Assembly (NCBI GenBank): GCA_050084515.1
Contig: CM114271.1
Location: 3,906,001-3,970,000, forward strand
Length of the DNA stretch: 64,000 nt
Direction of reading: 5' to 3'
From: Blasia pusilla
Taxonomy: Eukaryota
Part shown: in pieces, positions 7,291 to 52,944 of the stretch
Numbering within the stretch: position 1 is the stretch's first letter
How the letters are laid out: each line of letters begins with the position of its first letter
Position numbers and translations under genes: made by a program
Notes under the pieces: generated by a model
Told to the model about the DNA's origin: nothing
The model's input: the letters and a program-made list of their open reading frames with translations, nothing else
Databases searched by the model: none

Positions 7291-9449
7291 AGGAGCGCTA
7301 TAATGCGGGAGATTATTGTTTTCTTTCTGTATTTGCACGTTGGAGATTGTGTTCTCCATTGAGCGGCTCATCGGAGTGCTCTTGGGAGCAAGACCTGCTC
7401 GTTTCTATGCTTTGTTATGTAAATTTGTATACAAGAGAATCACGCGTGGAAGCGTTGCCCAATTTTTGATAGGATTTTAGTATGGGGACAGGGTTCTCCA
7501 TGTTAGTACTCTCAAGAGCACCTTGTAGCTTGCTAGAGGTAGTCTGCACAGTTTCTCAGTTGTTTGTGGGAGAAATCAATATGGAAGCACTACCAAATGT
7601 TTCGTAGGGTAGGAGGCCGCAAGCTGCACGATATTTTTTGTTAGTTTTTTATGGAAGGTTAAATGAAGAAATTGATTTGACGACGTCATAGTTGGAAAGT
7701 ATTGCACATTTTTAAAGAAATAGTGGGCAATTCAGACATGTGAGCATGGATTTGTGCCCTTTTTCAAGGGCTATCATACCCAACTTGTGAAGGAATGAGT
7801 AGTTTCAAAAATTTTGGTAAAATTCTTAGTTAAGAGGTAGAAAAAAGTAAACAATTATTTTATCTTAGTGCATAGGACAAGGGGAAAAAGTGATTTAAGG
7901 GTGAAGTCAAATAGAAACTTTATGTAGTGGGGGTTGACTCAAGATTTATGGGGCTTAGTGAGTATAAGACAAATGTAAGATAATTTTAGTAAGTTGATCC
8001 TTGGTTTAAGGGGTTGGTGGAGTGGGAAAAAAAAAAGAAATGACTTTTGAATAAGGTTAAAATGGAGCCATGTTTATTCACATGTGAGATATTATAATTA
8101 TCATTGGTGTTCTTGGACCATCTACCATTCAACCATTGTCGTCTATTTGACAACCGTCAACTATCGCTCGTTGCTATTCGAGTGTCGTTGACAAATGGGG
8201 TCAATGATTAGGCTATGCATAATGATGGGTAGCCGCTCACAAGGCCGCTTGACAATGATCGAGTACCGTGTCGTGATGCCCATAGTCGCAACGCGCTACC
8301 AATTGTTAAGTCGTGCCGCTCGTGCCCGCATCACACCGTCTCGATCACGGACCCACACCATCATTGAAGAGCACATTGTGTATTGCTGATAGAGGAGGGG
8401 ATGCTTCTGCGTGTTGCATTCCATCATCGAGTGCCGTGATGTTTGTAGTTGTACCGTGCCGCCAGTGCCCCACCGTACAGATGTATCCGCACAACACATC
8501 GAGGAGATTTGAGCATGACTTGTTGATTGGAGGAGTTATGTTCACACTTGAGTTGGGGTTGAGATTTGCAGTTGCTGAGGAGTGATAGAGACATTCTTCA
8601 GGTTATCCATTTTGGTATTTTTTCCTATACGTATGAGGGATTTCCAGATATGGTGTAGTTATTTGGGATATTGGGTTTGTACGGATGTTGAGAGGATCAT
8701 TAATGTATGTGATTAGGGGACAAAGATGTGTGTTGGCTGTCTAAAGTTGAAAGTATATATAGTCTATCGATGAGATGATAGGATAATTGTCAATTTTTTG
8801 CACCACGCCACTTGTTGCCTCACATTACACATCCTCAGTGCGAGGGAATGTAGATTGAGTGCCACATCCTTAGACTAAGTGATGGAAGGATTACTCATGA
8901 GAGTGAAATTGATCATGTGAGAGGGTTACGAGGGTCATCATGACATCCTTTCGAGACTTTGAAAGGGGAGGTGGTGTGTCTGAGAGTAGCTCTAGAAGAT
9001 TTACGCGTAGTGGCGCGAGGTTTTGAGGGTCTCCATGTGAGGGATTGCCTCGATCTCCTTCAGTGCCATCCTTATACAAGGGAGAGGGCGTAGTAGAGTT
9101 TGTTAGTACATCATCGCATATATTGAATAGTCATACCACCTAAGCGTACGAGATGGACGACCAAGATAGATGACCACGTAGCCTTTTGGGGGATGTGAGT
9201 CCAAATAGTTATACGGCTTCATTGCAGAGTTAAGGAGTTGGAGTGACTCATAGAGGGTCAAGAACTCCAAAGAGTTTAACCCTTTCATAGCATGGAATGA
9301 GATGTTCCAGTACATAGAGTTTTCCCAATAGTACGGACCCGAGATTGAGGCCTGGAGACTCTCAATCTAGAATGATTCCATGGATGTATTCCTTTTTGGA
9401 GGAACAAGAATCACTCTTTGATACAAAGGGATTCCATCATTCTATGAAC

Positions 9450-19018: not shown

Positions 19019-22000
19019 CTACGGATTGATTTTTCCCAACCTTACCCAATGCTCGATTGATGGAATCTCTAAACCTAGCCGTGTACAGTGGCGAGCTACA
19101 TCCTGAGCCACACCAAGAAGTTCTTCTTCTCGTTCTTTGACGACTTCCTGCAGGATTTTCACCTTGTCTTCAGCGGCTGGCATACTAACCGCAACGTCAT
19201 TCTGGAGATTGTTCACGACACTAAGCAGGTCATTGACTTCTTTGTCAGAAGAACCAGCGCTCCCATTTGCGCTAACAGAGCTCCGTCTGTTCGCCCGCAT
19301 CATCACAAACGTTTTCGTGTTGTCATACTCATTGTCCGTGTCCACAACTCGCTTTCCGACACCTTTGCCTTCATTGTCTTTCTCAAATAGCTCCAAGTTA
19401 ATGCGTTGGACTAGGGCCTCCTGAAACACGTCTTGTAGAACCTTATCCAGAGGATCCAGATAAATGAAAAGAAGTTGCTCCCAACAGCGCCCGAATTGCA
19501 ACTTGCTAATTCTTAGATGTTTCCGGCCCTCCTCCACCAAATGAGCAGGAGGGGCAAGGATGTTCTTCTCTTTCGCTCCTCGTCCCGAATGTTGAAAGGT
19601 TCCATTGAGATCACCATTAGTAGAACCGGCTTCGTGACCGGACACTTCGCTTGCGATTGTTGCCTTTTGTGCGTAAAGTCTCTGCATGCCGTCATTTATA
19701 GCAGTGCTCATAGAAGGTGTAGAGAGCATACGAAGCACATCCATAGTGTCACGCAGTTTCTGCAGACTCATTGACGGTTCCTCCATTGTTACATCATAGC
19801 AACCCCTTTGACCTGCAGTTGAGTTGATGGTTTCCAGCAAGTGAAGGCCAAAGCCCTTGCCTTGATAGGGTGGCAGCACCAATATCTGCAATTAACGTCC
19901 GACAGAGGCACGTATGACTGTCCGTCCCCCCAATCCCATCACCGAGAAAAACAGGAGCTGGACACCTAGATATTAGTTAAGCTGGACCTTGGTCCCTGTA
20001 TACTTGGTCGGCAAGCCGTCACGGAGGAATTACCTGACTTATTCGCAGTCTTGTGCTATCCGGATAGTGAAAGAAGCGGTATACGTTGCAGAAGCCAACG
20101 ACTCTCTTGTGATCCCCTTCTCCTTCCAGAGCAAGGTATACTTCCCACAGAGGATCATCACTTTCTATCGGCCGAGCACCTGTACAGCTTGGAGAATGTG
20201 AGTGTTTAAAAGCCAGTTTAGTACTACGACCGCTCATCTCGCACTGCTTGACACCTGTGAGAGACAAGATACTCGGAGCACTTGCTGGACGATTTCGGCT
20301 TCACTGCTGGATCAAATGTGGTGACTAGATGTACAATGTCGAGTCACGCAGCTTCAATAGTTGTACAGCAAGATAAAATCCCAGGTACCCATATTAACGA
20401 AGGAAGGAAGATGCACTCTAATTGAAAGAGTTCTTACCTTCGATATAAAGGAGAGCAAGAGGAGTCAGACGAGCATGCCAGGCCCTTACTTCATCATTGC
20501 TCAACTCCATTCGCAAGATCTGGAAGAAGGTTGGATAGGAAGTCGCAACTGTCAAAACATTGATACCAGACAAATATCATGTGACTCCTAGGCAGAAGAC
20601 TACGAAGAGTCCATACACCCTATTTTCAACAAGTCTTGGGCTTCTCCTGTATGGGTCAAAGGCACTCTGGATCAGAGATGGGAGTGGGAAGCTCTAGATT
20701 CATTCTGACGAAAAATAATATTCCTGCTCCACGCAACTCTCAGGGATACCAACACAAAATTTCACACCTTTGGATCACTGTCTATCATCGGTGCGAGAAT
20801 TGGAGAATGTGCAATCCTCCTCGATTTTATAATGTACCTACAGTCATGGGGTGGGGTGCAAAGACCCCACGACTAGCATCTAAGTGTTCTGACTGCATGA
20901 TATGATGTCAATAAGGACCTGTCCAAGTCTTGAAGAAGTTTCCACTTTGCTCTCTCTATCAATAGTCTCTCCATCAGCAGGTAGAGCACCATCAGTGTCA
21001 CATCTCCATGTTGATAGAACCTCTCCATGCTGTTTGATCATTTCTCTGGGATTCAACAAAAGACGTCAAAATATTGCTGGCAGTATAAGTTATAGAACCT
21101 TCCACCTGATAGACAACAAGGTCCGAAAAGAAGCACCTTTAGACAAGCAAACACTCTAAGTAGATCAATCTAGGAAAATTAAGCTGCAGATCAGGGTTGC
21201 GATACAGAAAAGACAGGTTCCTTACTCGAAGCCTTGGGAATACGAAGGTAAGCTATTAACAAATGCATCTCGATCATCAGTTAAACCGTCTCCAAACGCT
21301 TCCTGCCAGGCATCAACAAAGGACAACGGAATAAAGCCCCACCTATTGAGACGGTATCCAACCAGAAAGAAGTTCCACTATACTCACTCTGAAAAGCAGT
21401 ACATACCTTCAACTTCACGAGAATATCTGTAGCAGGCTTCTTCCCCAACTCACTCTGAAAGATGAGTATGAGTCATTGTCAGTGGACGAGGATGACACCA
21501 CAAGATTGAATGATGATCAATTAGTTGCCTTATGCAGATATGCACCTCTCCCGTAGTTTCATCAATTTCTTCACACTTCACGATAGTATATCATCTGAGT
21601 TTCTGTAAAAGCAAGACACAAAATCTGGAGATTAAATCTCATACCTTTGAGTCATACCGTATTTGCACATAGGTATGGAATGTCAGAGCGTGCAGCCACA
21701 AATCAATCTGCCGTGACAATTCAGTCGAGGTGTCAGCTTGTCAGCAGTTGATCCAAAACTCTGGTCAAGGACAGGACACCTTCTCCCTCGAGTAGGAATG
21801 ATAACCGACTTCATAGCAGGCTTGGGAGTTTATCAGGAAGAAGTCCTACACTAACTTGCTCAACATACGATCCTATCCAGACCTCACATTTCCAAGAAAC
21901 CCAAGTAAAGCGGCTTCTATATTTCTAGTCCTTGTTACCATTGTGAAGCCAGGTAACCTAGTAAGCAAGGTAACATCGTCTACAGAATGGAATTCTGTGG

Positions 22001-30231: not shown

Positions 30232-35383
<5,152 letters not shown>

Positions 35384-36249
35384 CTTGGAAACCTCCCGAT
35401 AACACTAATTCGCTGCTCCGCCTGCCTCACACGCCCATACACAGCTCCAAACTTCACCAATTCCGACGATCTCAAATTCCACTGCCACCACTTCTTCCAC
35501 GTCTCTCCGTTCCGCAATATTTCTCCTCGATCCGCAACGTTATTTTCTAGTGAACGCACTCCTTCCCCGCGTCATATTCGCAATTTCTCCATTTGCTGTT
35601 CTTCGCGAAGAAAGCCAGCGAAGAAGGCCGTCGTCTTCCTTCCTTCTCAGACACACACACACACGTGCGCAACCGGGGAATTTCCTGGTGAATCGGGGGA
35701 CGGCATTCGGTCTTCCAAAAGAGTGGTCGATTTCCCCGGCGGTGATTAATGTTTTTGTCTCCGTTAGATCTACATCCCACGACCCTGTCTCCGCCCGGAT
35801 GTCTCATACAATTTCCCGGCCACCGTTACCGGCAGTTTTTCAAACGAAGGGCGCTACCATTCAATGACGGAAGTCCTATGCTGACCATCGGATGCTGCGA
35901 TTGACTGTACCTGTGAAGGAACGAAGCCTAGGAAGGCGTTTAATCCGTTAGATGCAGACTTCAGTTTCTGTGGTTCCGACATCTGGCACACGATCGATAT
36001 CCTCGCCATCTATTGGTTGGGTGACGAAGGCGACCAAGTGCTTTTCCAGCGTCGCGAGGTTCAGGTGGTGAGACCGGCGCGCCAACTAGTTCAGCTGCTT
36101 TTGGCAACTTGAAGCCAGCTGGAATAACAGATATATCCATTTTATTATTTTAAAGGAAGACAAAGAAAGGTAATAACATTTTAAAAGAAGAGTAAAAAAA
36201 TGCATAAAAGTAAAAAATAAAATAGCAAGTAGCTAATGCAAACACCAAT

Positions 36250-37301
36250 TCAACGAGCTACACAATTGATAGTTTGAAACAAATCTGACAAGAACACGAG
36301 TGGTTGGTAAGACGTGAATGGACGACGAGGCGAGCGATCCCCCACCACCTTCGCACGACGTATCAATGCCAATGCTTGTGCACGTTGTAAGGCCAATGAG
36401 ATGCATTGCCAAAAATAAGTAGTAACTACATAGAGAGAAGGACTACGGGAAGGGGCAAGGTGGTGTTTCTCGAGGGAGTGGTAAGCACATGTTTTCACAA
36501 AAGTATCAAAAGACAGATGTAAATGACCGAATACTTCCACTTCAAAAGGAATAAATCCATCAGTCACATGTCTCACAGCATAACTTAACTCCTTGATTCT
36601 TGCTACAGCTTCGGCCGCCATATCTTTGGTATGTGCGGCTCGACACACCAAGTCAGAACGTGTTGGATCCGCAACCACCACATCACCTAGTGTTCGGAAT
36701 CCACCTCGATACATAACAAGATCCACTCTCCGACGAGAGGTTGCTTGTGTGGTTGAAGGTAAGCCATGGAGTTGCTCTTGCCCAATGGTGTATCATGCAG
36801 TACGAGCCACCGATGCTACCGCCTCTCTAATGACATCATGTGTGGCCGTTTGTTCTCCACCATGTGCACATCGGAGAATATGGATACCCTTGGCATCAAT
36901 GGGATCCCTGCATACACAATTCGGCACACCTAATAGAGAAGGATGGGGAAGTCCAAGACGTAACCGCAATGTTGTCGAGAATATACTTTGAGAAAGACGA
37001 AATGGAAGAATAAGAGGATTTGCAATAAGCCATGCCCCCGCTACGGTACCCGCATATGAACGCAGACGAGCTCGATGAGCGTCAAAGGATGCCTTGGAGA
37101 GACTGCTGGAAAAGTTGATTTGATGCAGATTCTCAGAGATATGCTCTTGAAGTCGATCAAGCCCTTCCGCTTTGAAAGGGGGTAGAATTGCTTGTGTAGC
37201 AAGAGGAAGAAGAGCTCGTGCAGATCTCAATTGTTGTTGAAATAACAAGTCCCCCTACTCTACATGGGCGATATGATCCATCAAGATAGGTGTGTCTCCT
37301 T
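36250..37301 (-). mobile_element. 3' part of a non-LTR retrotransposon with a restriction-like endonuclease (CRE/R2-type), degenerate; cut off by the Gypsy element
   Basis: LRLRLGLP...CVC...HILRC...THDVIREAVA (CCHC finger plus RHD-like motif), then DLV...GDVVVADP...ARIKELSY...FIPFEVEVFG...ISLALQRAQA (PD-(D/E)xK RLE domain). There is an internal stop at ~36793. Confidence 0.8.
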
Positions 37302-37748
37302 TGTCACATCTGAGTAGCCGATAGGCCGAGATCTATCGTGCATAGGGCGTAGGAGCCAGCAGACTATCTTGAGTGTAACTTTGTCCCACGGTGTCGGATG
37401 AGGTTGAGCATAGGTCCATTATGTCAGGAACATCATTTTTGACAACTTTCATGTTGAGGTCTTTTACAACCGGGTGACTTGTTGACCAGGTCACCCGCCC
37501 CTCGTAACCTATACACGCAGGTTACCAAGGGGAGGGCTATTTTTAGGGGAAGAGCCTTTTGGCTCTTCCCAACCCTATATAAGAGAGGAAGATTGATTTC
37601 CTAAGCCATCTTTCTCATGTTGGGACGTTGGAGTACCTCCCTTGTATGTGTGTGAGATAAGACTAGGGTGCTAGCGTCCGGATTCCTTGATAGCACAGGG
37701 TGGATGAGGCTCGATATGCCGATGTAGATTGAGGAGTGGAGTTTTAGG
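37302..37748 (+). repeat. 5' LTR (portion shared with the 3' copy; true 3' end unresolved)
   Basis: tgtcacatctgagtagccgataggccgagatc...gaggagtggagttttagg is repeated at 45955-46398. It contains a TATA-like cctatatataag at ~37574. Confidence 0.85.
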
Positions 37749-38681
37749 GCGATAGAGCGCCCCCCGCATTTAGGGCCCAGGGGGGATAGGGCCGTGGGCC
37801 AAGTTCTCCCCTCCAACGTGGTAGGAGTGGATGTGGTGGAGTTGTAGCGGGGCGAACGCGGTTGCGCATGGGCAACGTGGTGGCAGGGAGGATGTCGACG
37901 TGGTGAGTGACCGACATAGTTGGACAGCATGCGTGACATGATGTTTTTGGGGCGCGACAGAGCGTTGTGAGAGTTGACGATGGAGGGGCAGTGCGCATGA
38001 TGCCAACGGGTTGTCCGCATCTGTTGACGGGAGGATCGACGTGTTGGTCGAGGGGAGTGTTATGTGGCGGAGATTGTCATATCATGTGGAGGAGTGCATA
38101 TTGACGGTGCAGCAGGTTGGAGGGCGTGATCAGATTATCCATTCGAGTCCCTTTTCCCGCACTTGTCGTGTGTGATTGAGAGTGCTGGGTATCGGGTAGT
38201 AGCCGGTGCTAGATGGGTGCAGTGATGGTGACGAGTGTAGATTCTTTTCATGTGTAGTATGTTGGTGGATATACGGCGGTTGCCGAGTAGGGGTCGCGTG
38301 TATGACCCGAGAGAGTGTCGCTAGGTTAGGTGAGTCAGTTGGGAGGCTCATGGTGAGCCCGAGTGTTGAGCCTGCGTGAGGCCGGGTATGTCATCACGGG
38401 ATTGATGTTAGCATAGGTGAGCTAGTGAGGCGTGTGGGAGACTCTCGGTGAGTGTGAGTGCTTGAGCGGGTGAGACAGGGTTTGTCATCAAGGCGTTCTT
38501 CCAGGGTTCGGAAGAACGGGGTAGTGCGAGCAGTAGTAGTGGTGTGACACGGAGTGGAGTGAGATACCGAGGGGTTACCAGTGAGGAGCTACCTCGACAT
38601 CCATCCGTGGTTGGATCGTCATCACTGGACACTGGGTCTGGTGACGAGATCACAGACAGAGACAGTAGTACTTGGCAGGAG

Positions 38682-39700
38682 ATGGACGACATGGGCCATC
38701 GGGGCATGCGTCGTTTCTCGGGTGCAATGGGCACCATCGACTTAGATGATTTCATCCAAGAGTTCGACACATGGTGCGACTTCTAAGAGATACGGACCGC
38801 GACACGGTTCAACCCTTTCATGGCATGGAAGGGGTTGTTCCAGCACTTGGAGGGTCCTCCGATGGATGATTACATGGAGTTTCGATCACTATATTCAGTA
38901 GAGATCGATGCTTGGAGGATGTATTGGGCTCCAGGGTATGTGTCCACTAGTGGTCACGAGGCATATGATGGGATTGTGAGAGGAGAGAGACCCACACCAT
39001 CAGCCCGGAGACTAGATGGAGAGGAGGGCAGTGACAGAGGCGATGTGGTAGAGACCTCTGGTGGTAGAGGGCCACCCAGTTTCAGCCCCACAGTGGAGTT
39101 CTTCCGACAATTGGGGAAGAGCTACCAAGGCGTACGCACCGACAAGCTGAAGAGTCTACAGGATTTTCAGCGACGATCGGGTGAGAGTCTGAGAGAGGCC
39201 TTCACACGCATGAGGAGGCTGATCATTGCTACATTTGGAGTGACAAAGGCGCAGTCAGTCCAGTATTGGTACGGGGTTCTGGACCGAGAACTACAGAGGA
39301 GAGTCCGAGATGCGGTGCTGATTCACACAGGGAAGCCCACATTGAAGGTGGTCTTTGAGTTGTCTGAGCGTATTGAGCTCAACATGAGTGAGCGGTAGTG
39401 ACCGCTGGATTTTTTCGAGAGTCGACGGGTCCCGAGCGGCGGTGACCCCACAGTGCACGCAATGAGCACGAGTACCACGGGAGCGGGCCAGTGTGCCTAG
39501 AGTTCAGGGCGGGTACCGTGAGCCTATGAGGCAACGACCCGCACCTACATATGTTGCCCAACAGGGACTGATGTGGTCTTGTTGGACGTGTGGAGGGGCC
39601 CATAGGCAGAGAGACTGCCCACAGCATGGGAGAGGACCATCAGCGCCTCCGATTGCTCAAGAGCCACAGAGGATGGCCCGACCACAGCACTAGTGTGACC
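38682..39700 (+). pseudogene. gag-like region with Zn knuckle
   Basis: MDDMGHRGMRRFSG...LDDFIQEFDTWC (stop) ...FQRRSGESLREAFTRMRRL..., then CWTCGGAHRQRDC. Confidence 0.75.
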
Positions 39701-39924
39701 ATTGCCACAGATATGGTCACACTAGGGATAGATGTGTTGACCTTCGCCGAGGGGCACGTCCAGAGGTAGGCCGAGGGCCTGGGGGCGGTCGTCATGGAGG
39801 AGGTCGGGGAGTTCTTCCTGGACATGGTGGTAGAGGACCACCACCAGCCAGAGGAGATGGAGCAGGAGCACCTGAGTCGGCCCTTCTCTCACGCATTGAT
39901 CAGTTGGAGTAGAGGATTGTTGCC

Positions 39925-41385
39925 ATGACGATGATGCAGCTTAGGGAAGGCACAGTGCTGCGAGCAGCTAGTGTGACTCCAGTCTCTACCTCTTACCCTG
40001 ACCCGGGTGAGGATCTCTCCAACATGGGATTTATGTGTAGTGCAGCCCAAGTTGAGGCAGCTGCAGTGGTGACTCGGGGTGCTGCGAGAGGCACCGAGCC
40101 ATCGAGAGGTGGAGTTGAGATTGACCCACCAGAGGGGACCGATGGGCGGCAGGCGAGGGTTCCACAGTCGTTCACATTTTCGGAGGCACTACACACACCA
40201 TCGATGGTGCCTCGACGACCAGCGGTGCCTACAGTTCACGCACCTACGTCGACGTCACGAGGAGTTGGAGTGACAACTCCTATACCGGCTCGAGTGGAGT
40301 CAATGTCGACCATAGTGTTGGAGGTGGCCACTAGAGTGAGTCAGACTCCGCTATTTTCCGCCTTAGAGTTGGCGACGTTGGGAGTGGGACCAGCTGAGGT
40401 GTTCCGGTTGGCCGCCACGTTGTGTGAGCGTGGAGAGATGACTGCTTCTTGTTCAGAGGTAGTTGAGGAGGTGGTGGACTTGCCCTCAGAGCCCGTGCTT
40501 GGGTCATTCCCCACAGAGTCATGGCATGCGGCGGCGGCGAAGTTGGTAGATATGCAAGCTCGACCGGCCATAGAGCGAGCAATGGTGACACCTGGAGTAG
40601 TGTTACTGGATAACCAAGTTGGAGTATTTCGCTTGGTTAGTCCGACGGGGACAGTATACCACCCGCAGCGCGTCCTACTTGATTCGGGAGCGCAACCCTT
40701 GATGTTAGGGAAGGCGGCGTGTTTAGCGTTGGGGTTACGGAAGGCCGACATTGAGCCTTGTCCCTTCCAGATACAGACCTCGATTGGGGGCGTATCACCC
40801 ACTCAGTATATGACTCGACAGGAGATTGTTGTGAGAGTCCAGCCAGAGCATGCGACGGATAGTGCTATGGTGCACACACGTGCGATTACGACACCACTTG
40901 AGTCGTACGATGTGTTGATGGGGAGTACAGTGTTATATCCCCTAGGATTCATCCTTGACTTCTGGGAGGAGACCGTTGCTTATCGGCCAGGATGGCGGTC
41001 AGGTGACGGTCGGATGAGTCAGTTACCCGTGCAGTTTGCGGGACGAGGTGGTCGATCACGAGGCGAGTCTGTGACCACGTTGGCGGCTTTCACAGGTAGT
41101 GTTAGCTGGCCAGGAGAGTTGTTGGAGGGGAACGCACATGCGGAGGATGTCCCAGTAGTGGATAGTCCCACGGAGAGACAGGCCATGGCGGGTGTCTCTT
41201 CCCATGTTAGCGATGCCTCTTCACCATTATGGGGTACGACTCGAGAGCTACAGAGGAGTGTCGACGACCTCGTGAGGCAGGCGTGGAGTCATGTTTTTAT
41301 CCCAGAGCAGCGAGAGTCACGTGGCGATCAAGCTCTTGGAGTGGAGACGATGACCCCACTAGATACCACACCTGTTGTGTGGTAG
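39925..41385 (+). pseudogene. Retrotransposon aspartic protease-containing segment
   Basis: VLLDSGAQPLML and YDVLMG motifs. In the same frame as the DNMT ORF, separated only by TAG at 41383-41385. Confidence 0.8.
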
Positions 41386-42340
41386 TGCCCAGAGGAGGGT
41401 GTTAGGGTGTTAGATCTCTTTGGAGGGATTAGCACCGGATTGGCTGCAGTATTGCAGGCGGGCATACGGGTGCATCAGTACCTTTATGTGGAGAGAGATG
41501 AGACCCCGCGGCGAGTATCATTACGTCACGTGGCGAGATTGGTCCAGAGGTATCCTAAGTTGTTGTCGGTATCTGCAGTACGGGGATACCAGCATACGCT
41601 ACCTGTCGACATATCTTTGGTGGGAGCGCAGGATCTTGATAGAGTTGGCACCATTGATTTGGTGATTCCTGGATGGCCATGTCAGGGTCATTCATCAGCT
41701 GGCCGAGGATTTGGATTGCAGGATCCGAGATCAGGGATGTTTTGGGAGATGCTGCGAGTAGTACGACACTTGCAGGAGAGTCAGATATGTTCTCTTGCGT
41801 ACATTTTGGAGAACGTGCCGTTGTTGGGAGATACTCGTGCACGTGTGATGATGAGTGTACATCACGTGAGGTCCTGGTTGGGACCAGCTGTGTTGTTAGA
41901 TGCAGCGAGAGTTGGGTCACGTGCCCATCGTCCACGACTGTGGTGGACGAACCTGATACCATCAGAGGTACTGAGTCAAGCCTACAGTGGAGTCCAGAGA
42001 GCACCACATCTCACGGTGGATGCTATTTTGGACTCAAGGCGTCGATCTCAGGTGGTGACACGCGATGATAGACCACCATTGGCCACGGCCAATAGGGTGG
42101 GGGAGTTGAGGGCAGCCTTACCTACGTTGGTGAGCTTCCCAGCATCCGATGCCTTTCGTCAGGGAGGGCTAGGTATGATTTGGGATGAGGTGACCGGAGT
42201 ATTGGAGGAGCCTACAGCAGATGAGCGCGAGCGCGCCATGGGGTTCACTACCGGTACTACGGCGGTGCCAGGGATGACTGAGGCATCACGGAGACAGGTG
42301 TTGGGGCAGGCGATGGACCTCAACTGTCTCACATGGATAG
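41386..42340 (+). CDS. C5 cytosine DNA methyltransferase domain, DNMT3-like, within the retrotransposon polyprotein
   Basis: Motif I VLDLFGGISTG, II YVERDE, IV IDLVIPGWPCQGHS (catalytic PC), VI YILENV, VIII RAHRPRLWWTNL, IX ERERAMGF, X RRQVLGQAM. The order is non-permuted and there is no internal stop. Confidence 0.9.
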
Positions 42341-42699
42341 TCAGCCTAGGTATGGCTGAGCAGAGACGGATGCGAGTGTCATCCATGCCGTCACGTCCAC
42401 GAGTTGGACCATTGCCTACATGGTCTGTACAGGCATTGGATGGGAGCGAGACGAGGAGAGATAGGCACCCATGGACTTCCTGGGACATCGTTCGAGCAGA
42501 GAGTGCGAAGGCGGCTAGAGTAGCACATGTTCATTTTTCAGATGTGGAGCATGCTGTAGGAGGTCAGAGTGGAGTGGAGTGGCTGTTGCGGAGGTGGCTA
42601 GGGTTGCTACATACCAACCAAAGCCGGAGGTTGCGTCCTCTCCAAGTGAGGTCACGATGGAGACTTCGGAGCCTGTGATAGGTCTCAAGTTGATAAGAG

Positions 42700-44100
42700 G
42701 AGAGCGACGGAGAGTTCATAGGTTTCTAAGAGGGCATGTCAGTTGTTTTGCCTTCAGTATGAGAGACTTGGGTACGCTGAAGAGTCCCGAGATACGGATT
42801 GAGTTGGCTAGTGATACGCGGATCTTTCGTCAACCCTACAGGTATTCTGATATGGAACGAGCCTTGATTCAGAGCAGGATTCAGGACTTGTTGGAGGCAG
42901 GACTTGTGGAGTTATCACATGGGGAGTATGCATCTGCCACAGTCATGCCGGAGAAGAAGGATATGTATGGCAATTGGACGGATAGGTGGATGTGTGGAGA
43001 TTACCGTCCTATCAACCGACAGACGAGGTCAGATCAGTATGCCATGCCTACTCCTAAGGAGATCTTTGATGCGGTAGGGCATGCAAAGATCTTCAGTACT
43101 TTAGATCTCCGTGCTGGCTATCATCAGCTTCCTATAAGGTTGGAGGACAGGGAGAAGACATCATTCTGGGGGATAGATCGGTTCGGGAGAGATTGCTTGT
43201 ATCAGTGGCGGTTCTTACCATTTGGGTTGAAGAATGCGCTCACGGAGTTGTGGAGTTTCAGAGAGTGATGGATAGGATTACGGCTGGCTTGGATTTTGTG
43301 CGATGTTACATAGATGATATTCTTATCTTGATTCCACGGTTGAGGAGCATGAGCGACACTTGGAGGAGGTGTTTCAGCGATTGCAGTTACATGGACTGAA
43401 GTTACATCAAGGCAAGTGCAGATTCTTTCAGGAGCAGATTGAGTACTTGGGACATACCATATACCCAAGTGGGTTAGGCGTTCAGCAGACGAAGGTAGAG
43501 GCTATTGCGCAGATTCCACGCCCTACAGATGTGAGTCGAGTCTGAGCATTTCTTGGACTGGCGAACTTCTATCGACGGTATGTCAAGGGTTTTAGTGCGA
43601 TCGCAAAGTCTTTCACCTTGTTGACGAGACTTGATCAGGTGTGGTTGTGGGGAGATGATCAGGAGCGAGTATTTGAGGAGCTCAAGGACAGGTTGACGTC
43701 CTCACCCATTTTACAGAGACCGGTTAGGGGTTGCCCATTCCAGTTACATACGGATTGGAGCATGTTGGGTCTAGGAGCAATTCTTACTCAGAGGGATGAC
43801 GAGGAGAGGGAGTTCGTTGTGGCTTACGCGAGCCAATCAAACAACATTGCAGAGGCGAAGTACAGCTCCTACGAGGGAGAGTGCTTGGCTGCAGTGTGGG
43901 CCGTGGCACATTTTAGGTGCTATTTATTTGGCAACCCTTTCACACTTATCACTGATCATCAGCCGTTGAGGTGGTTGATGGAGTCCGACAAGCTTACGGG
44001 AAAGCTTGCCAGGTGGGCTCTATTACTATAGGAGTATGAGTTTGAGGTGGTTCATAGGCCAGGTTGGCTGAACCAGGATGCGGATGGGTTGAGTCGTAAC
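42700..44100 (+). pseudogene. Gypsy reverse transcriptase and RNase H (frameshifted)
   Basis: RQPYRYS, MCGDYRPIN, FSTLDLRAGYHQ, LPFGLKNA, CYIDDILI, IEYLGH; RNase H LHTDWSMLGLGAIL, YSSYEGECLAAVW, ITDHQPL. Confidence 0.93.
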
Positions 44101-44299
44101 CCATGTCCGAGTCAGAGAGACGACACAAGAGCTTGATGGCACGGAGAGAGTGATGAGGAGATGGTGCCCGGTTGGCATGCATCTGCCTATCTTTGTTGGT
44201 TGACTATGGCAGGTCTGCCACAGGTGATGACTCTTGTGGTGGGAATGGATGATGAGTCTTTGGATCCGGAGGTTAGTGAGAAGGCGACAGGTGGTCGTG

Positions 44300-45560
44300 A
44301 TATCCATGACGACGTGGAGGTTGTGGACTTCTTGCGCACTGGCGTCATTGCGAGTATAGTGAGTGCTAGGGAGCGGGATCGGATCCTACAGAGAGCCAAG
44401 AGGTTCAGGTGGGAGGGGACTCACATTTTGCGGGTATGGGGACATGGTAGGATACGAGTGGTACCTCATCCTTCCCAGCGAGCACGTGTAGTGCGACATG
44501 CCTATGAGGAGTTGGGACATTTCGGAGTAAAGCGTACTTACAGCTTACTCCTGGTTTAGTATTGGTGGCACGGCATGCATGCTGGGGTACAGCACTTTGT
44601 GGCCAGATGTATGGTATGTGACAGAGTGCGAGCATCCTTCAATGCTCCCACTCCGCAGTTACATCCTTTTCCGATTATGGGTTTAGGTTATCGGTGGAGT
44701 TTAGACTTCGCGGGACCTTTGCCATTGTGAGCGTCATCATAGCGTCGTGTCGGTCATGGTGGAGCATTTCTCCAAGTGGATAGAGTTGGTGTCACTACCA
44801 GACAATGCGAGCAAGGGAACAACTTATGCGTTTCTAGATCGTGTGCTTAGTCACTTTGGTGCACCGGCGGAGGTGTTCACTGACCAGGGTACCGAGTTCA
44901 GGGGAGAGTTTCAGGCCTTGTGTGATCAGGCGCTGATAGATCACCGCACCACATTCAGGGATCATCCTGAGGCGGATGGATTGGCAGAGAGAGTGGTACA
45001 GACGGTGAAGAGAGGATTGCGCAAGTATGGCTTGCAGGGGACGATTGAGGGAGTGGGACCTCGATTTGCCATGGTTGGCTATGGGTTATCGCTTTAGTCG
45101 GCATGCATCCTTGGCGTCATTTTCACCATACTTTTTGCTCTTTGGGAGAGAGCCAGATTTACCTGCAGCGATTCGACGTGACATGGCGGAGGTGTTAGAT
45201 CTTGATGATCCAGATGTGTGGGTGCAAGCATGTTCTCAGAGGGCAGAAGTTTTTTGTAGAGTTATGCCTATGGCCTTTGAGAACTTAGCTATTGCCCAGC
45301 ATAGAGATACATTGAGGTACGTGACCATTCGTGGAGGAGGTTATCGTCCAGGGATTAGGAGGTTTCATCCTGGACATTACGTGTATTTATAGCAGGCGGC
45401 ACCCACGACGCTAGATGTCACTACAGGGCGCACGATCCTACGTGTGCGCGAGGTATTACCGACCGGAGTCCTCATGTTGGAGGGACGAGATGGTATGGTT
45501 TGGAAGGATCATGTGCGCAATTGTGCGCCATGTCATCTTCCGAACGTAGATGGGACGGTG
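44300..45560 (+). pseudogene. Gypsy integrase (disrupted)
   Basis: LGHFG...CMVC Zn-binding region; DDE core WSLDFAGP / VFTDQGTEF / DGLAERVVQT; SPYFLLFGREP. Confidence 0.9.
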
Positions 45561-45596
45561 GATCCGAGCTTGGCAATGGTACCTGCAGGCTTGAGG

Positions 45597-45736
45597 TGTA
45601 TGTTGTGCGGATCTGCGAGGGGTGCAGCCACCATGTTGGTATGTGATGGTTGTTCTCGAGGGTGGCATATGTCATGTCTCGACCCCCTCTTGATGTTGTT
45701 CCCATGGGACGATGGATATGTCCGAGATGTGTATAG
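45597..45736 (+). pseudogene. PHD finger at the polyprotein C-terminus (one frameshift)
   Basis: CMLCGSARGAATMLVCDGCSRGWHMSCLDP, frameshift, then DVVPMGRWICPRCV* gives a complete C4HC3. Confidence 0.88.
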
Positions 45737-45954
45737 GGTAGTAGGTCATGTCAGAGAGATGTGATATTTTCTATCTGGAGTTAGGGGGATCCAACTGCCA
45801 CCTAGGGGGGCGGTTGTGTGATCTCCATGTATATGTATGAGTTCATTTTTGTACATGTGTGGATCGACCCGTGTGTGGGGAAGATCGGTGTTGTGTGGTG
45901 TAGATGTGACAAGCGATGTATGTTGTGTAGCGATATGTATGCGCACGGCATATT

Positions 45955-46398
45955 TGTCACATCTGAGTAGCCGATAGGCCGAGATCTATCGTGGATAGGC
46001 GTAGGAGCCAACGGACTATCTTGAGTGTAACTTTGTCCCACAAAGTGTCGGATGAAGTTGAGGATAGGTCCATTGTGTCGTGAACGTCATTTCGGCGACT
46101 TTCATGTTGAGGTCTTTTGGCCGTGTGACTTGTTGACGAGGTCACTGCCCAGTAACTGTGTCTGCGCGTGAGTTACCAAGGGAAGGGCTATTTTTAGGAG
46201 AAGAGCCTTTTGGCTCTTCCCAACCTATATAAGAGAGGAAGATGGCTTTCCTAAGCCATCTTTCTCATGTTGGGCCGTTGGAGCACCTCTCTTGTATGTG
46301 TGTGAGCTAGGACTAGGGTGCTAGCGTCCGGATTCCTTGATAGCACAGGGTGGACGAGGCTCGATATGCCGATGTAGATTGAGGAGTGGAGTTTTAGG
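45955..46398 (+). repeat. 3' LTR copy (truncated by rearrangement)
   Basis: Matches 37302-37748 with visible substitutions and indels. Confidence 0.85.
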
Positions 46399-47340
46399 CC
46401 GGGTGTGCCGTTTTTACTCCAAACATGTACTTCCTCATTTGACAAATGGAGATAGATGTGCACGTTGTCGTGCGCATACATATCGCTACACAACATACAT
46501 CGCTCGTCACATCTACACCATACAACACTGATCTTCCCCTCACACGGGCCGGGTGTGTCGTTTCTTCCCCACACACGGGTGTGCCATATCGCAACCCATG
46601 TCGTCCATCTCTTGCCAAGTACTACTGTCTCTGTCGGTGATATTGTCACTAGACCCAGTGTCCAGTGATGACGATCCAGTCACGGATGGATGTCGAGGGA
46701 GCTCCTCACTGGTAACCCCTCGGTATCTCACTACACTCCGTATCACACCACTACCACTGCTCGCACTACCCCGTTCTTCCGAACCCTGGAAGAACGCCGT
46801 GATGACAAACCTTGTCTCACCCGCTCAAGCACTCAGACTCACCGAGAGTCTCCCACACGCCTCACTAGCTCACCTATGCTAACGTCAATCCCGTGATGAC
46901 ATACCCGGCCTCACGCACGCTCAACACTCGGGCTCACCATGAGCCTCCCAACTGACTCACCTAACCTAGCCTAAACCACTCGGGTATATGGTGTGTCCCA
47001 AGTACTCAATCTGCTCTTGAAAGAATCTGCACTTGCTTGGATGTAACTTCAGTCCATGTAACTGCAATCGTCGAAACACCTCCTCCAAGTGTCGCTCATG
47101 CTCCTCAACCGTGGAATTGAAGATAAGAATATCATCTATGTAACATCGTACAAAATCCAAGCCAGCCAGAATCCTATCCATCACTCTCTGAAACTCCGCA
47201 GGCGCGTGTGTGGGGAAGATCGGTGTTGTGTGGTGTAGATGTGACGAGCGATGTATGTTGTGTAGCGATATGTATGCGCACGACAACGTGCACATCTATC
47301 TCCATTTGTCAAATGAAGAAGTACATGGTTGGAGGAAAAA
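46399..47340. mobile_element. Rearranged mosaic of fragments of the same retrotransposon family, bounded by a ~136 bp inverted repeat
   Basis: 46411-46546 is the reverse complement of 47205-47340. ~46595-46970 is the reverse complement of ~38320-38695. ~46968-47202 is the reverse complement of RT ~43250-43480. Confidence 0.85.
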
Positions 47341-49390: not shown

Positions 49391-52300
49391 TGTCACGACC
49401 CTCATAACCTAACGAGCGTCAAGCGGAACATCCGAACTCTAGCGAGCTCACGCTAGGATGGTTTGCGCGTTGGAGTGATCTCTTGGAAGAGACACAAGAG
49501 ATGAGACATGAACAATGATGAGCATTTCATGCATTTATGGTCGTAACAAAAAAACCTTGACCAAAATTGAACCAAGACTAGAGAGGAGTTGAGTCTAGGA
49601 AGGTTGGTTTCCAAAGAGGTGAGAACCGAATTTGGAACGTGACTAGCGTTTGGGGTTTTGACTATATTTGTGACCACAACTGTTAGTTCCAAGTTGTATT
49701 TGAGAAAATTGAGATGGCATTGGAAAGATTATGCAAATTTGGTTCCAATGCACCAAAGATCTCAGCAAACGCACAAGCAAAGAGTGAGATATTGGCCGAA
49801 AATGACTATATGGGTTGTCAAATTGAGGGCCAAAAAGAGGGGCATGAGTGCTCCTTCCCCAAAGGTAAGGGGAGGGCTGAGATACCTACAAGTACTACTA
49901 AGGGGGAAGGTCTCTAAGAGTGCTTGCGACTCGAACCCCACTTTGGGGCACCATAGATTCCAACCAACGACTCGTTTAGTTGGGTCTCATTTTGGGGGCT
50001 CATGTGAGGTCCATTGGACAATAGCTAGGGCACAAACGCCGCTTTAGGTGCCTGGAATAACCTGGAAGTTTCTCCCAAGTCTTGAAAGACTTGCGCGTGT
50101 TGGAAATTTAGGAACTAGGGAAGGTTGATCTTGATGAGGTGCCGAGTTGAGAACTCGGTCGGTTGGAAGGCCGATTGATCCATGCAAGACTAACGTGAGT
50201 GTGTTTGGGTGCAAATTGGCAATGAGAGTGTGTCCTACTGAACGTACACTTTCGCAACACTAAAGATTGACGTTGAAGAGGAGTAGGCGCATGACACATG
50301 GTATCAGACCTAATCCTTGGTGAGCAAGAACCTGAGGTCGTAGGAGCAAGTGGACGCTTGGGGAGAACTCAAGGTAGTAGTGAGGCCTAGACCATCGGGG
50401 AGGGACGGAAGAGACAAGGAGAAGATCTGAAGAGGCAAGTGCTTGAAGATGGAAATCAAGGGCAAAGAACCAAGAAGCGTCGAGTCAAGCGACAAAATCC
50501 GAGAGACAAACTGATGCCAAACCAAGAGCCAGAGGAGGAGACGCTGGTTTTCAAGGTGCCGAGCTCCAGTCATTGAGAATATCCCACATAAGAATCCTTC
50601 CACTGAGCCTTCGACTCTAAACTCAAGTGACCTGGCACTCTATATCCAAATGATGGACTTGATGAAGTTGATGAATGAGTAGATAGCTTAGGATACTAAG
50701 TGGATTGTTGAGCTCGAGTGGAACAGAGCTTCTAGCTCCGGCAAGAAGCTTTATAAGACAAATATTCCAACGCCATTTATGGGAATGTGGCAATTTCAAA
50801 AGGTGAAAAATTCCTGACGGAGGTGGAACTTTACTTTGAGGCACAGAGGGCAAAAGAGCAAGCCAAGGTGACCATGGCGGTCATGTTCCTAAAGGATCAC
50901 CCACTCGAGTAGTGGATGGCTCATCGCAAAGAACATCTAGGCCGTGGAACATCTATGAGTTGGGAGGAGTTCTAGGTGTTGATTGGCAACCGATTCATTC
51001 CAAAGTTTCAGGAGTTTTGTGATAGTGTGAAGTTCGTACGCTTGTGGCAGAGTGGGTCCCTTAGCGCTCATATGTCGGGGTTCTATGCAAAAATGAACTC
51101 GCTTCCCAAGATGGATGAGTTTACAAAGAAGGTGATCTTCTTTAGTGGACTTAAGCCTACTGCATAAAAGGCTCTCTTCCGGATGCTAGAGCTACTGAAG
51201 ACGTGTGTTGAACTTTTGAAGCTGGCAGAGGGGATAGGGGACGATGAGGTCCAAGTCCAGAGACCCTTGGAGCATAAAAGTTTTTATAAGTTATCGAAAA
51301 ACAAGGGGGCATCCAAGAGGGTCTCTTACCCCTGCAGCGAAACGAGTGGAACTCCACGCGAAGCCAAAGGGAGCGCAGCATCCAAAGGCAAGAAATGACA
51401 AGGTGACATGCTACAATTTTGGGGAACTAGGGCACATTGCAAAGAGATGCTCAAAGCCAAAGGTTAGTAATTGGAGTATGATTGTGTTTTCTGCTAAGCA
51501 CTTATCGGCGGGAGGTCTAGAGATGTCCCTTCAAGTCACCAAGAGGACGCCCAATTTGGTATATGTAAGATCCAATATCTCTGATCGTGATGTGATGTTG
51601 TTCGTTGATACAAGTGCTTTGCACTCCTTCTTGAGTCTGAGAATTATGAAGGAGTTGGGTTTGTCAACCACTAAGGCGGACAAGCCCATTTGGGTAGGCT
51701 TTGCTAGAGGCAAGTCTCGCTGAACTTCTGAGATTGGTTCCATGACTAACATGTGGATGCGGAGTATTTGAGTTGAAGGAGAATTTCAGTGTGTGCGAGA
51801 TGGACAGAATCAATCGAGTCTTGGGAACACATTCTTGGATGTGTATGAGGTGGAGCTATGACAAAGTCTATTGAGGTTGAGCGTCTTAGTGAAAGGAAAA
51901 TGGTTGCAGGCGAGGTTGGTTCATAAGGTTCATTTGAAAAAGGAGTTGGTGAACGCTATTATAAGGAGGAGTTTGACCAAGCTAGAAGATGGGTCTCTCT
52001 GCTTGATGAGACAAGTAGAGGAGACTACAACCAAGAGACGCGGAGATCATGACTCAACTTCGAGGGGAATCCCATACTTGCTCCAGAGAGTAATAAAGGA
52101 ATTTGGTGATGTCTTAACGAATGAGCTTGCAAATGAGTTGCCACCACATAGGGCAATCGATCATAAGATACATGTCATCCCTGGGTCTCAACCACCTTGA
52201 AAGGTCCCGTATAAATTGAATCATGAGGAACTTGTTGAGTTGAAAAATCGGTTTAGTGAGCTCTAAGAGAAGGGCTACATCAGAACTAGCAAGTCATCGT

Positions 52301-52750
52301 ATGGAACGCCCATTCTCTTTGTGAAGAAGAAGGATGGGAAAATGAGACTCTGTGTTGATTACCCTACGTTGAATAACGTGACGGTGAGGAACAATTCCCC
52401 TTTTCCGAGGATCGATGATCTCTCCGATAGATTGTAAGGGGCGAAGTACTTCAATAGGATTGATTTGAAGTCATGATATTACCATATTCGGATTGCCGAA
52501 GGTTCATGAACTCCATTTTTCACGAGGAGACGGATGAGTATATGATCATCTACATCAATGATATGCTAATCCATTTGGAGTCACTAGAAGAGCACGCTCA
52601 ACATCTGAGAGCGGTGTTGTCGAAACTAAGGGCAAACAAGTTGTATGCGAATGTGGATAAGAGTGAGTTTGGGTTGCACAAGATCTAGTTCTTTGATTAT
52701 GTGGTTAACACAGATGGAGCTAGACCAGATATGGATAAGGTGAAAGTTTT
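49391..52750 (+). mobile_element. Second, truncated Ty3/Gypsy element (LTR, tRNA-Met PBS, gag, protease, partial RT)
   Basis: LTR TGTCA...TGACA at 49391-50296, PBS tggtatcaga at 50299, degenerate knuckle CYNFGELGHIAKRC, FVDTSA protease, and [18 protein letters not shown] and IYIND RT. Heavily disrupted, with no DNMT seen. Confidence 0.88.
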
Positions 52751-52944
52751 CATGCACATACACATCGCTGTCACCGAATGCACATACAAACACACACGAT
52801 CCCATGCTAACTCATGGAATTCACACAACGAGACAATAAGTACCAAAATATCTCCAATGGAATCCTCCAAGAGAGAGAGTTTGAGAGCTCATTATCTCTT
52901 TGTAAATTTCATGGATCTCTCCATGACAAGGTCTCACAAATATG

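Follow-up and report, generated by a model that had tools for sequence, protein, structure and literature searches.

Cytosine methylation is the main weapon of host genomes against transposons, and given this defence a transposon that encodes its own de novo methyltransferase is a paradox. The closest described element is KnitGypsy-Dnmt3 of the alga Klebsormidium nitens, which carries a Dnmt3 in the Pol open reading frame (ORF) of a Gypsy retrotransposon and is under purifying selection, with Ka/Ks < 0.2 (de Mendoza et al. 2018, Nat Commun; PMC5890265). The legend to Fig. 4c of that paper describes its repeats as "the same as that of a DIRS retrotransposon", combined with Gypsy domains, and the K. 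nitens copies are reported to fall inside DNMT3 in a reference tree of DNA methyltransferases (DNMTs) (PMC5890265). In Symbiodinium, the Dnmt3-like enzyme in the Pol of SymbioDIRS-Dnmt3 shows de novo CG methylation when tested in yeast, and the Symbiodinium capture was considered independent by the authors (PMC5890265). The role of such enzymes has been open since 2018 because manipulation is difficult in the known hosts, dinoflagellates and Klebsormidium, and no activity of the K. nitens enzyme was seen in yeast. Here we analyze a 64,000-nucleotide (nt) stretch of Blasia pusilla DNA (GenBank assembly GCA_050084515.1, contig CM114271.1, positions 3,906,001 to 3,970,000 of the forward strand), referred to as the window. 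At 37302-46418 on its plus strand it holds a copy of a Ty3/Gypsy-type retroelement with a DNMT3-like C5 cytosine methyltransferase (MTase) between protease and reverse transcriptase (RT). The copy itself is dead. Judged by domain order and DNMT phylogeny, its family is the lineage of KnitGypsy-Dnmt3 in new hosts.

A methyltransferase-bearing Gypsy family and its lineage

Stop-to-stop ORFs and Pfam matches, together with colinear tblastn alignments of relatives, give the domain order gag(CCHC)-protease (PR)-C5-MTase-RT-RNase H (RH)-integrase (IN)-PHD. The protease motif LLDSGA lies in a 490-amino-acid (aa) ORF at 39913-41385, which shares its frame with the 430-aa MTase ORF at 41386-42678; one TAG separates them, and RT, RH, and IN follow, exactly as a preliminary description of this locus had it. 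Downstream of the MTase, Pfam matches RVT_1, RT_RNaseH, RT_RNaseH_2, Integrase_H2C2 (weakly), rve, and PHD. The PR-RT-RH-IN order is that of a Ty3/Gypsy element, and RT and IN are related to Ty3: the pol part of a family profile matches Ty3 Gag-Pol (7q5b) at E=2.7e-33 and Ty3 RT (4ol8) at 2e-17. No tyrosine recombinase family was matched by Pfam in the window ORFs or the scanned full-length relatives, which have rve and Integrase_H2C2 instead. The gag-like stop-to-stop ORF at 38787-39398 has no Pfam match. In the relatives P0025, P0188, and P0227, the region homologous to the protease matches Asp_protease_2 / gag-asp_proteas.

The MTase ORF matches PF00145 with E=6.1e-10 and 39.5 bits, above the cut-off of 22, and relatives of the window DNMT match it likewise. 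By sequence, the nearest solved structures in the Protein Data Bank (PDB) are DNMT3A, 3B, and 3C (DNMT3A E=7e-10). The window domain is colinear with DNMT3A residues 6-171 and 235-268; DRM2 aligns through its C-terminal half alone (226-346), as expected of a permuted enzyme, so the window MTase is not permuted. The family profile gives the same ranking, with DNMT3A (3e-20), DNMT3C (2.8e-18), and DNMT3B (7e-17) ahead of the weaker matches tobacco DRM (2.9e-9), M.HaeIII (6.6e-9), and DRM2 (3e-4). An AlphaFold2 model of the window domain has a predicted local distance difference test score (pLDDT) of 95.1 and a predicted template modelling score (pTM) of 0.92. When it was searched with Foldseek, the top 50 chains were all DNMT3A, 3B, or 3C, the best being 6f57_D (E=4.6e-18, TM 0.84 on target length). 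No DNMT2 occurs among the best 60 of 66 sequence matches or the top 50 fold matches. These results bear out the earlier suggestion of a DNMT3-like, nonpermuted domain. The element domain shares its catalytic fold and the motif order I-IV-VI-IX-X with cellular DNMT3A, 3B, and 3C, at ~21% identity in structural alignment. Unlike cellular DNMT3, it has neither PWWP nor ADD (no Pfam match in window ORFs or scanned full-length relatives); a PHD finger stands at the integrase C terminus instead, and the catalytic domain sits between protease and RT.

Relatives reach E=1e-156, a match far beyond chance. Among 35 long homologues are 14 annotated Marchantia polymorpha proteins at 57-76% identity and one from Sphagnum fallax. 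The M. polymorpha protein P0001 (Mp_4g09160, 1278 aa) carries gag-CCHC-PR-DNMT in a single frame, and P0035 and P0032 carry DNMT-RT-RH-IN(-PHD) in a single frame. A scan of metagenome contigs gave 287 pattern matches, of which 147 were confirmed and 80 loci retained; the DNMT ends and RT starts within 1.5 kb in 60 of the 80. The DNMT occupies the same place in all 44 classifiable PR-DNMT-RT database proteins. The MTase is thus part of the polyprotein, as first proposed, and the DNMT is a feature of the family rather than a neighboring gene or a one-off insertion; proteins of Marchantia, Sphagnum, Closterium, and K. nitens share it.

A search of 1.84 billion cluster representatives retrieved 831 clusters at E<=1e-10, of which 236 reach E<=1e-30; organisms are named for 5 of 30 representatives (Scenedesmus sp., three Closterium entries, and K. 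nitens GAQ93235.1). Matches in the ESM Atlas were limited to an entry labelled PF00145, Streptophyta, and to clusters of phage methylases. The 173 full-length DNMT domains (44 PR-DNMT-RT, 90 RH-DNMT-IN, 39 fragments) were placed in a midpoint-rooted FastTree phylogeny with Shimodaira-Hasegawa-like (SH-like) support values. The 44 PR-DNMT-RT domains and 12 fragments stand apart from the 90 RH-DNMT-IN domains and 27 fragments across a split of support 100. The window DNMT belongs to a clade of 10 rows, also of support 100, that includes seven Marchantia proteins. Closterium and K. nitens lie deeper on the PR-DNMT-RT side, with supports of 86-98, and under the midpoint root alone the branching order is Klebsormidium, then Closterium, then the liverwort clades. 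The K. nitens protein GAQ93235.1 (P0227) has a CCHC knuckle at 297-313, a protease at 598-691, and a DNMT at 833-1148. Its DNMT is on the PR-DNMT-RT side of the split and aligns to that of the window at 37% identity over 321 aa (E=2e-55), with a protease alignment at E=6e-5. The shared CCHC-PR-DNMT order and DNMT clade argue that the window family belongs to the published Gypsy-DNMT3 lineage, which is present in streptophyte algae, liverworts, and a moss. GAQ93235.1 may be one of the KnitGypsy-Dnmt3 copies named in PMC5890265.

In a sister lineage of Gypsy-type polyproteins, a DNMT of the same family follows RNase H and precedes integrase (RT-RH-DNMT-IN-PHD), usually with the PHD finger. Its members are P0184 (a Scenedesmus "pol") and P0314, both from Scenedesmus sp., P0247, P0181, P0212, and 85 others, and it extends to chlorophyte algae. 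In another protein, P0299, the DNMT (517-852) precedes the protease (889-993) and RT-RH-IN follows; its DNMT groups with the PR-DNMT-RT side.

We next consider the family in its host, drawing on reads at least 80% alike from four runs that carry the same species label, one of whole-genome shotgun (WGS) DNA and three of stranded RNA. DNA depth over five single-copy bins is 0-0.93 (mean 0.30). It is 731-1384 from leader to DNMT (DNMT bins 1384, 1208, and 1177) and 1592-2647 over RT-IN, so that DNMT depth is 45-87% of RT-IN depth. These values correspond to copy equivalents on the order of thousands (about 10^3-10^4), a figure that rests on a baseline of about five reads and could err several-fold either way. 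Of 131,279 DNA reads, 610 are at least 99% alike to the window copy, 19,343 are 95-99%, 43,009 are 90-95%, and the remaining 68,317 fall under 90%. Transcripts are sense, with strong strand bias (for example, 21.3 versus 0.58 in bin 41010-41543, run X17). The huge copy number and sense transcription bear out the claim that the family persists in this land-plant lineage. The contig is also genuine: five introns of the neighboring minus-strand host gene at 32458-35137 are spliced in all three RNA runs, and this splicing and the WGS depth, both from the same species, contradict a contaminant or chimeric contig. Separately, the single-copy depth of ~0.3 was obtained from ~2 billion bases (~1 in 100 of run X14), which points to a very large host genome with the element family as a visible fraction.

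The DNMT is under purifying selection. Across 32 sequences, no change is seen at F11, E141, or V143, and conservation at P97, C98, and N142 is 90% or higher; in a set of 35 that spans 33-49% identity, C98 (PC motif) and E141 (ENV) never vary. Between the intact loci L021 and L023, the ratio of nonsynonymous to synonymous substitution rates (dN/dS) is 0.127 for the DNMT, at a nearly saturated dS of 1.34, and lower for RT (0.035) and IN (0.022). Among usable pairs of mostly decayed copies, the median is 0.47 for the DNMT (1181 pairs; 0.61 over 1112 pairs with another reference), 0.39 for RT, and 0.44 for IN. Comparisons of the window with its nearest loci, L001, L013, and L028, are saturated and give no value.

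A conserved stop codon and split repeats

In L021, L022, L023, L038/L039, L071, and L001, the DNMT and RT frames are identical with one TAG between them; L001 belongs to the window's own clade. The codons after that TAG are CAG-TTA, CAA-TCA, CAA-CTA, or CAA-CCA. The exact sequence TAGCARYYA lies at the in-frame ORF1/ORF2 boundary in six of 60 loci (L001, L021, L022, L023, L038, and L071). About one such match would be expected by chance anywhere in those 60 linkers, and each of the six observed lies at the homologous boundary. PMC3159437 gives UAG-CAR-YYA as the context for read-through of the tobamovirus type. The element loci share with the leaky tobamovirus UAG the same six bases after the stop; unlike there, the UAG separates Gag-PR-DNMT from RT-RH-IN in a retroelement, and read-through is predicted from sequence. 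Database proteins of the ORF1 type agree with termination at this point, with conserved C termini at a median of 85 aa past the DNMT (31 proteins from independent sources). Six end in ...GGMNALSATK or close variants, and Marchantia proteins terminate in ...TKEGTENPPLEQVS. A conserved stop after the DNMT implies that the DNMT belongs to the Gag-PR product and that RT-IN-PHD would be made by read-through only.

The terminal repeats of relatives are arranged in an unusual way. The complete layout A1-coding-B1-A2-B2 was found in 5 of 24 loci examined (L076, L046, L065, L050, and L059), and a B1/B2 pair alone in four more (L043, L049, L031, and L032); L047 and L064 have further B1/B2 pairs (25 loci examined). 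In the split-repeat loci, a G-run stands directly before B1, A starts with TGTCATG, B ends in ...ACA, and the inner B1/A2 junction reads ...ACA-NN-TGT.... A CTAGGGGGG-type run precedes B1 in five of these loci, and the same run occurs in the tail of L021. In the window, the purine run is likewise before B and not before A2. Further, 311 WGS reads connect position 46418 via 13 extra bases to exactly 45813, indicating that A2 is followed by a second B in most host copies. In the window's clade, A1/A2 are also seen in L005, which is cut by a contig end. The label "LTR (long terminal repeat) retrotransposon" given at first therefore fits in part: the element is of Gypsy type with terminal direct repeats, but its relatives show split direct repeats and no plain LTR pair.

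Target duplications of 4 bp are perfect in two of four testable copies, ATCA/ATCA in L065 and CCTA/CCTA in L046. L076 has TGGT/TGGC (3/4 match), L050 has none, and the left end of L059 is truncated. We infer that A-coding-B-A-B is a two-LTR circle, with LTR = B+A, opened at the inner TG/CA site. Outside the element ends, L046 has an 85-bp stretch repeated on both sides (1339-1423 and 12202-12286, ~85% identical), at distances of 15 nt from A1 and 6 nt from B2, and the two flanks of L076 are alike over ~150 bp of AT-rich sequence. This flank similarity could reflect insertion into a tandem repeat or be a trace of the integration route.

The layout A1-internal-B1-A2-B2 is also that of Ngaro/PAT elements (DIRS order). 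Elements of the Ngaro/PAT type use a tyrosine recombinase and are not known to make a target duplication. Unlike them, the present family encodes a DDE integrase of the rve type and shows TG..CA ends and, in two of the four testable copies, 4-bp duplications. In the literature on split direct repeats, titles and abstract openings concern tyrosine-recombinase elements, and no integrase-bearing case was found among them.

The window copy and its surroundings

The window copy is a pseudogene that cannot make protein. Its damage comprises two in-frame TAGs, at least five frame changes, terminal repeats that are 89% identical, and a rearranged 3' end (Table 1). By tblastn of relatives, frame 1 spans 39484-42579 and contains both TAGs, and the RT-to-PHD part is split over five segments in frames 3, 2, 1, 2, and 3. 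The preliminary description had omitted the second TAG (39910-39912), the different frame of gag, the five RT-IN frame segments, and the rearranged 3' end. The TAG between protease and DNMT is a sense codon in Marchantia P0001 and is thus damage rather than signal. Similarly, most family members in the same-species WGS reads show small indels at or near the frame changes, which marks the breaks as peculiar to the window copy; this includes the DNMT-RT linker, where most family reads carry a small indel relative to the window copy. The window copy has also lost the TAG-CAR-YYA stop of its intact relatives.

Table 1. Features of the element copy and of the adjacent host gene (window coordinates)
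Feature	Position	Strand or frame	Evidence and remarks
Terminal direct repeat A1	37302..37757	+	89% identity to 45953-46407; first bases TGTCAC
TATATAA in A1	~37576-37582	+	position from A2 sequence and 8650-nt repeat register
Leader / 5' untranslated region	37758..38681	+	between A1 and start of gag match; inverted copy of 38320-38695 at 46970-46595
gag, broken	38682..40300	+	frame 3 for 38682-39392, frame 1 from 39484; tblastn of Marchantia P0001
CCHC knuckle of gag	39694-39735	+	motif
In-frame TAG in gag region	39910-39912	+	stop coordinates
Aspartic protease and linker	40600..41385	+	LLDSGA 40675-40692; ends in TAG 41383-41385
DNMT3-like C5 cytosine methyltransferase domain	41386..42400	+	open frame, catalytic motifs present; PF00145
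Motif I, LFGGISTG	41416-41439	+	motif search
Motif IV, GWPCQG	41671-41688	+	motif search
Motif VI, ENV	41809-41817	+	motif search
AHRPRLWWTNL	41923-41955	+	motif search
ERERAMGF	42223-42246	+	motif search
LGQAMD	42301-42318	+	motif search
DNMT-RT linker with frame change	42401..42653	+	frame map
RT and RNase H, three frames	42654..44031	+	Pfam RVT_1, RT_RNaseH, RT_RNaseH_2; frame map
FGLKNA	43221-43238	frame 3	motif in RT
YIDD	43307-43318	frame 2	motif in RT
RNase H	43546-44031	frame 1	frame map
Integrase and PHD region	44422..45764	+	Pfam Integrase_H2C2 (weak), rve, PHD; frame ends 45764
Integrase zinc-binding part	~44470-44559	+	Pfam Integrase_H2C2 (weak)
Integrase DDE core	44705-45034	+	rve; DHPEADGLAE 44960-44989
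PHD finger, C-terminal	45597-45677	+	Pfam PHD
G-run CCTAGGGGGGCG, polypurine-tract-like	45801-45812	+	sequence; directly before B1
Repeat segment B1	45813-45950	+	follows G-run, abuts A2
B copies	46466-46551 and 47205-47285	- and +	self-BLAST
Terminal direct repeat A2	45953..46418	+	TATATAA 46226-46232; family reads continue up to 46418
Rearranged tail, composite inverted same-family fragment	46411..47340	-	occupies place expected for B2
Introns of host gene 32458-35137	33137-33575, 33727-33859, 34004-34238, 34367-34761, 34934-35137	-	RNA reads

Self-BLAST aligns the direct repeats as 37300-37751 and 45953-46401, at 89.06% identity across 457 columns. The element had been described as enclosed by direct terminal repeats at 37302-46398; its left start, TG at 37302, stands, and the right end shifts to ~46407-46418. 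If the repeats were identical at insertion, their 11% divergence would imply millions of years. The target duplication of the window copy is unreadable, with CCTT as the left flank and a rearranged right end. DNA depth in the leader bin 37806-38339 (731) is below that of the neighboring bins.

The tail at 46411-47340 measures 930 bp and is bounded by inverted terminal repeats of 140 bp (95% identical), which contain B copies. Between them lie inverted pieces of the leader (46595-46970, equivalent to 38320-38695) and of RT (46969-47200, equivalent to 43249-43479; tblastn match 46969-47223, minus strand), in noncolinear order. DNA depth over the tail is 676-922, so its pieces are themselves highly repeated. 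The tail could be a local rearrangement or a nonautonomous derivative.

Other features of the window concern the host and further repeats. The first exon of a CYP710-type sterol 22-desaturase (2-859, minus strand) shows identities of 74% with M. polymorpha, 73% with Riccia fluitans, and 67% with Calypogeia, which indicates a land-plant host, probably a liverwort, distinct from these species. One exon of the spliced gene at 32458-35137 matches an SIS domain. A GNAT acetyltransferase that looks HAT1-like has its last exon at 19019-19891 (minus strand), and at 9218-9358 (plus strand) is a short gag-like fragment related to the DNMT-bearing family. Another high-copy repeat (36204-37271; DNA depth ~580-630) lies directly upstream of the element. 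Its minus-strand ORFs (36250-36792 and 36793-37254) have no Pfam match, and most of its RNA reads are minus-strand; judging by a Cys/His-rich stretch, it may be the tail of a non-LTR element. A different Gypsy-type fragment at 51238-52862 (plus strand) has CCHC, protease, and an RT that is 24-28% identical to that of the DNMT-bearing family, and no DNMT match.

Working model, alternatives, and known counterparts

We favor, with a probability of about 0.6, the reading that the window holds a pseudogenized copy of a Gypsy DNMT3 family of the K. nitens lineage, whose intact members would follow a working model in which the steps of read-through, packaging, and cDNA methylation are drawn from gene order. 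A leaky UAG (TAG-CAR-YYA) just past the DNMT would make Gag-PR-DNMT abundant and leave RT-RH-IN-PHD to read-through. The protease would free the DNMT, which would travel with the particle or the preintegration complex and methylate the element's own new DNA de novo, before or at integration. The PHD finger of the integrase may read histone tails and so influence the choice of integration site. The DDE integrase would then insert the element at its TG..CA ends with a 4-bp target duplication, and integration would leave a permuted copy (A-coding-B-A-B), much as though a circle with two LTRs were cut open at the internal ...ACA-NN-TGT... site. The window copy itself is capable of none of these steps.

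Several observations weigh against this reading. The assignment to DNMT3 is taken from best matches to solved structures rather than from a tree with DNMT1, DNMT3, DRM, and CMT references. The exact read-through motif is retained in only six of the 60 loci and has no match in the window between 37001 and 47000. The clear split-repeat loci come from a clade only 33-39% identical in the DNMT, and for the window's own clade, split-repeat support consists of the split reads and L005. The intact loci L021 and L023 have no terminal repeats or end overlaps within their contigs, which may be short or collapsed, and no tRNA-type primer-binding site was recognized after A1 in the window or the split-repeat loci. 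DNMT constraint in the intact pair is weaker than that of RT and IN (0.127 versus 0.035 and 0.022) and was measured near saturation, and the copy number has a narrow baseline. RNA depth is 3-22 over gag-PR-DNMT versus 32-97 over RT-IN, whereas DNA depth differs only ~1.2- to 2.2-fold; many RT-IN transcripts may come from relatives without a DNMT or with a differing one. Finally, the K. nitens element DNMT showed no activity in yeast, a result its authors judged inconclusive (PMC5890265).

The best-surviving alternative, which we consider unlikely, is that the DNMT works in trans, with host chromatin or other transposons as its targets, and does not mainly modify the element's own cDNA. It would then reshape the methylome, mark the integration neighborhood, or dampen transposition to spare the host. 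The 10^3-10^4 copy equivalents, the sense transcripts, the conserved catalytic domain, and a PHD histone reader in the same polyprotein would all suit such a role, and host-level effects (in Symbiodinium) and a possible slowing of transposition have been discussed (PMC5890265). However, the K. nitens methylome is reported as not unusual in PMC5890265, most copies seen are decayed, and a position in the Gag-PR ORF, whose product forms the particle, suits a cis role at least equally well.

Less probable again is that the DNMT is a passenger, captured once long ago and either without a role in the life cycle or now acting on RNA. Its weaker constraint relative to RT and IN, the lower RNA coverage over the DNMT part, and the negative yeast assay of the K. 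nitens enzyme (PMC5890265) are consistent with a passenger. A dN/dS of 0.13 between diverged intact copies and a catalytic Cys and Glu invariant in 35 sequences would be unexpected of one, however, and the domain is retained in 236 clusters (E<=1e-30) and at two polyprotein positions. As to RNA, the 2018 authors did raise RNA methylation, but for a different (LINE) element (PMC5890265); fold and sequence here match the DNA enzymes DNMT3A, 3B, and 3C, and no DNMT2 is among the best matches listed. A local artefact (a host gene fragment, one-off insertion, chimeric assembly, or contaminant contig) is scarcely credible: the heavy damage and inverted 3' fragments show that local rearrangement occurred, but the PR-DNMT-RT order recurs in independent sources (60 of the 80 metagenome loci, 14 proteins of Marchantia, and entries from Closterium and K. 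nitens), same-species WGS covers the DNMT at 1177-1384x, same-species RNA splices the neighboring gene, and the CYP710 fragment is plant-like.

Beyond the favored reading of a dead copy of the K. nitens lineage, a bolder account can be put forward tentatively, and we think it doubtful as a whole. The Gypsy lineage would be older than land plants and largely vertical in descent, with a DNMT3-type enzyme encoded ahead of a leaky UAG and produced in Gag-like excess, and with permuted, circle-junction-like DDE integration. The enzyme would supply a real share of de novo methylation in bryophytes, and exchange with the plant DNMT3 genes, in either direction, might have taken place. The contributor role is suggested by the 10^3-10^4 copies and transcription in the host and by the intact gag-PR-DNMT frames annotated in M. 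polymorpha.

With regard to novelty, the preliminary description overrated the element, since the lineage was published for K. nitens in 2018; the land-plant hosts are, as far as found, new in print. No publication was found naming a DNMT-bearing retrotransposon in Marchantia or any land plant in the accessible texts, whose supplements could list cases, and the later papers, in the text available, mention such elements only as "streptophytes" (PMC12344493; bioRxiv 10.64898/2026.05.21.726589). Not found in print are the land-plant hosts, the conserved leaky stop, the combination of split repeats, DDE integrase, TG..CA ends, and 4-bp duplications, and the RH-DNMT-IN sister lineage. The value of the locus therefore lies in new hosts, including a genetic model, and in testable features; the window copy itself is an ordinary relic. 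M. polymorpha is genetically tractable and has annotated open gag-PR-DNMT frames (Mp_4g09160), which makes the question of the enzyme's role testable, and the leaky stop and the permuted repeats with integrase-type ends are two checkable predictions, on expression and integration.

Among known systems, SymbioDIRS-Dnmt3 and SymbioLINE-Dnmt of Symbiodinium are, like the window family, retrotransposons that captured a DNMT. They have a tyrosine-recombinase DIRS or a LINE backbone in another supergroup, whereas the window family has a Ty3/Gypsy backbone and a DDE integrase. Chromoviruses and PHD-bearing LTR retrotransposons resemble it in placing a chromatin reader at the Gypsy integrase C terminus; it differs from chromoviruses in having a PHD finger rather than a chromodomain, combined with a DNA methyltransferase. 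PHD fingers in retrotransposons have already been published (Kapitonov and Jurka 2003 as well as Perez-Alegre et al. 2005, both as cited in PMC6673714). KnitGypsy-Dnmt3 is the nearest counterpart. In the text of PMC5890265 seen here, no mention was found of a read-through stop, target-site duplications, or a PHD finger for that element. Both it and the window family join a Gypsy-type pol to an intron-less, nonpermuted Dnmt3-type domain in the polyprotein, and both are under purifying selection (Ka/Ks < 0.2 there, as given in PMC5890265, and 0.13 here). The DIRS-like repeats reported for KnitGypsy-Dnmt3 (PMC5890265) correspond to A-coding-B-A-B here, with the window copy itself rearranged. The two differ in host and abundance: an alga with few copies, according to PMC5890265, versus land plants (the window host, M. 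polymorpha, and Sphagnum), with thousands of copies in the window host.

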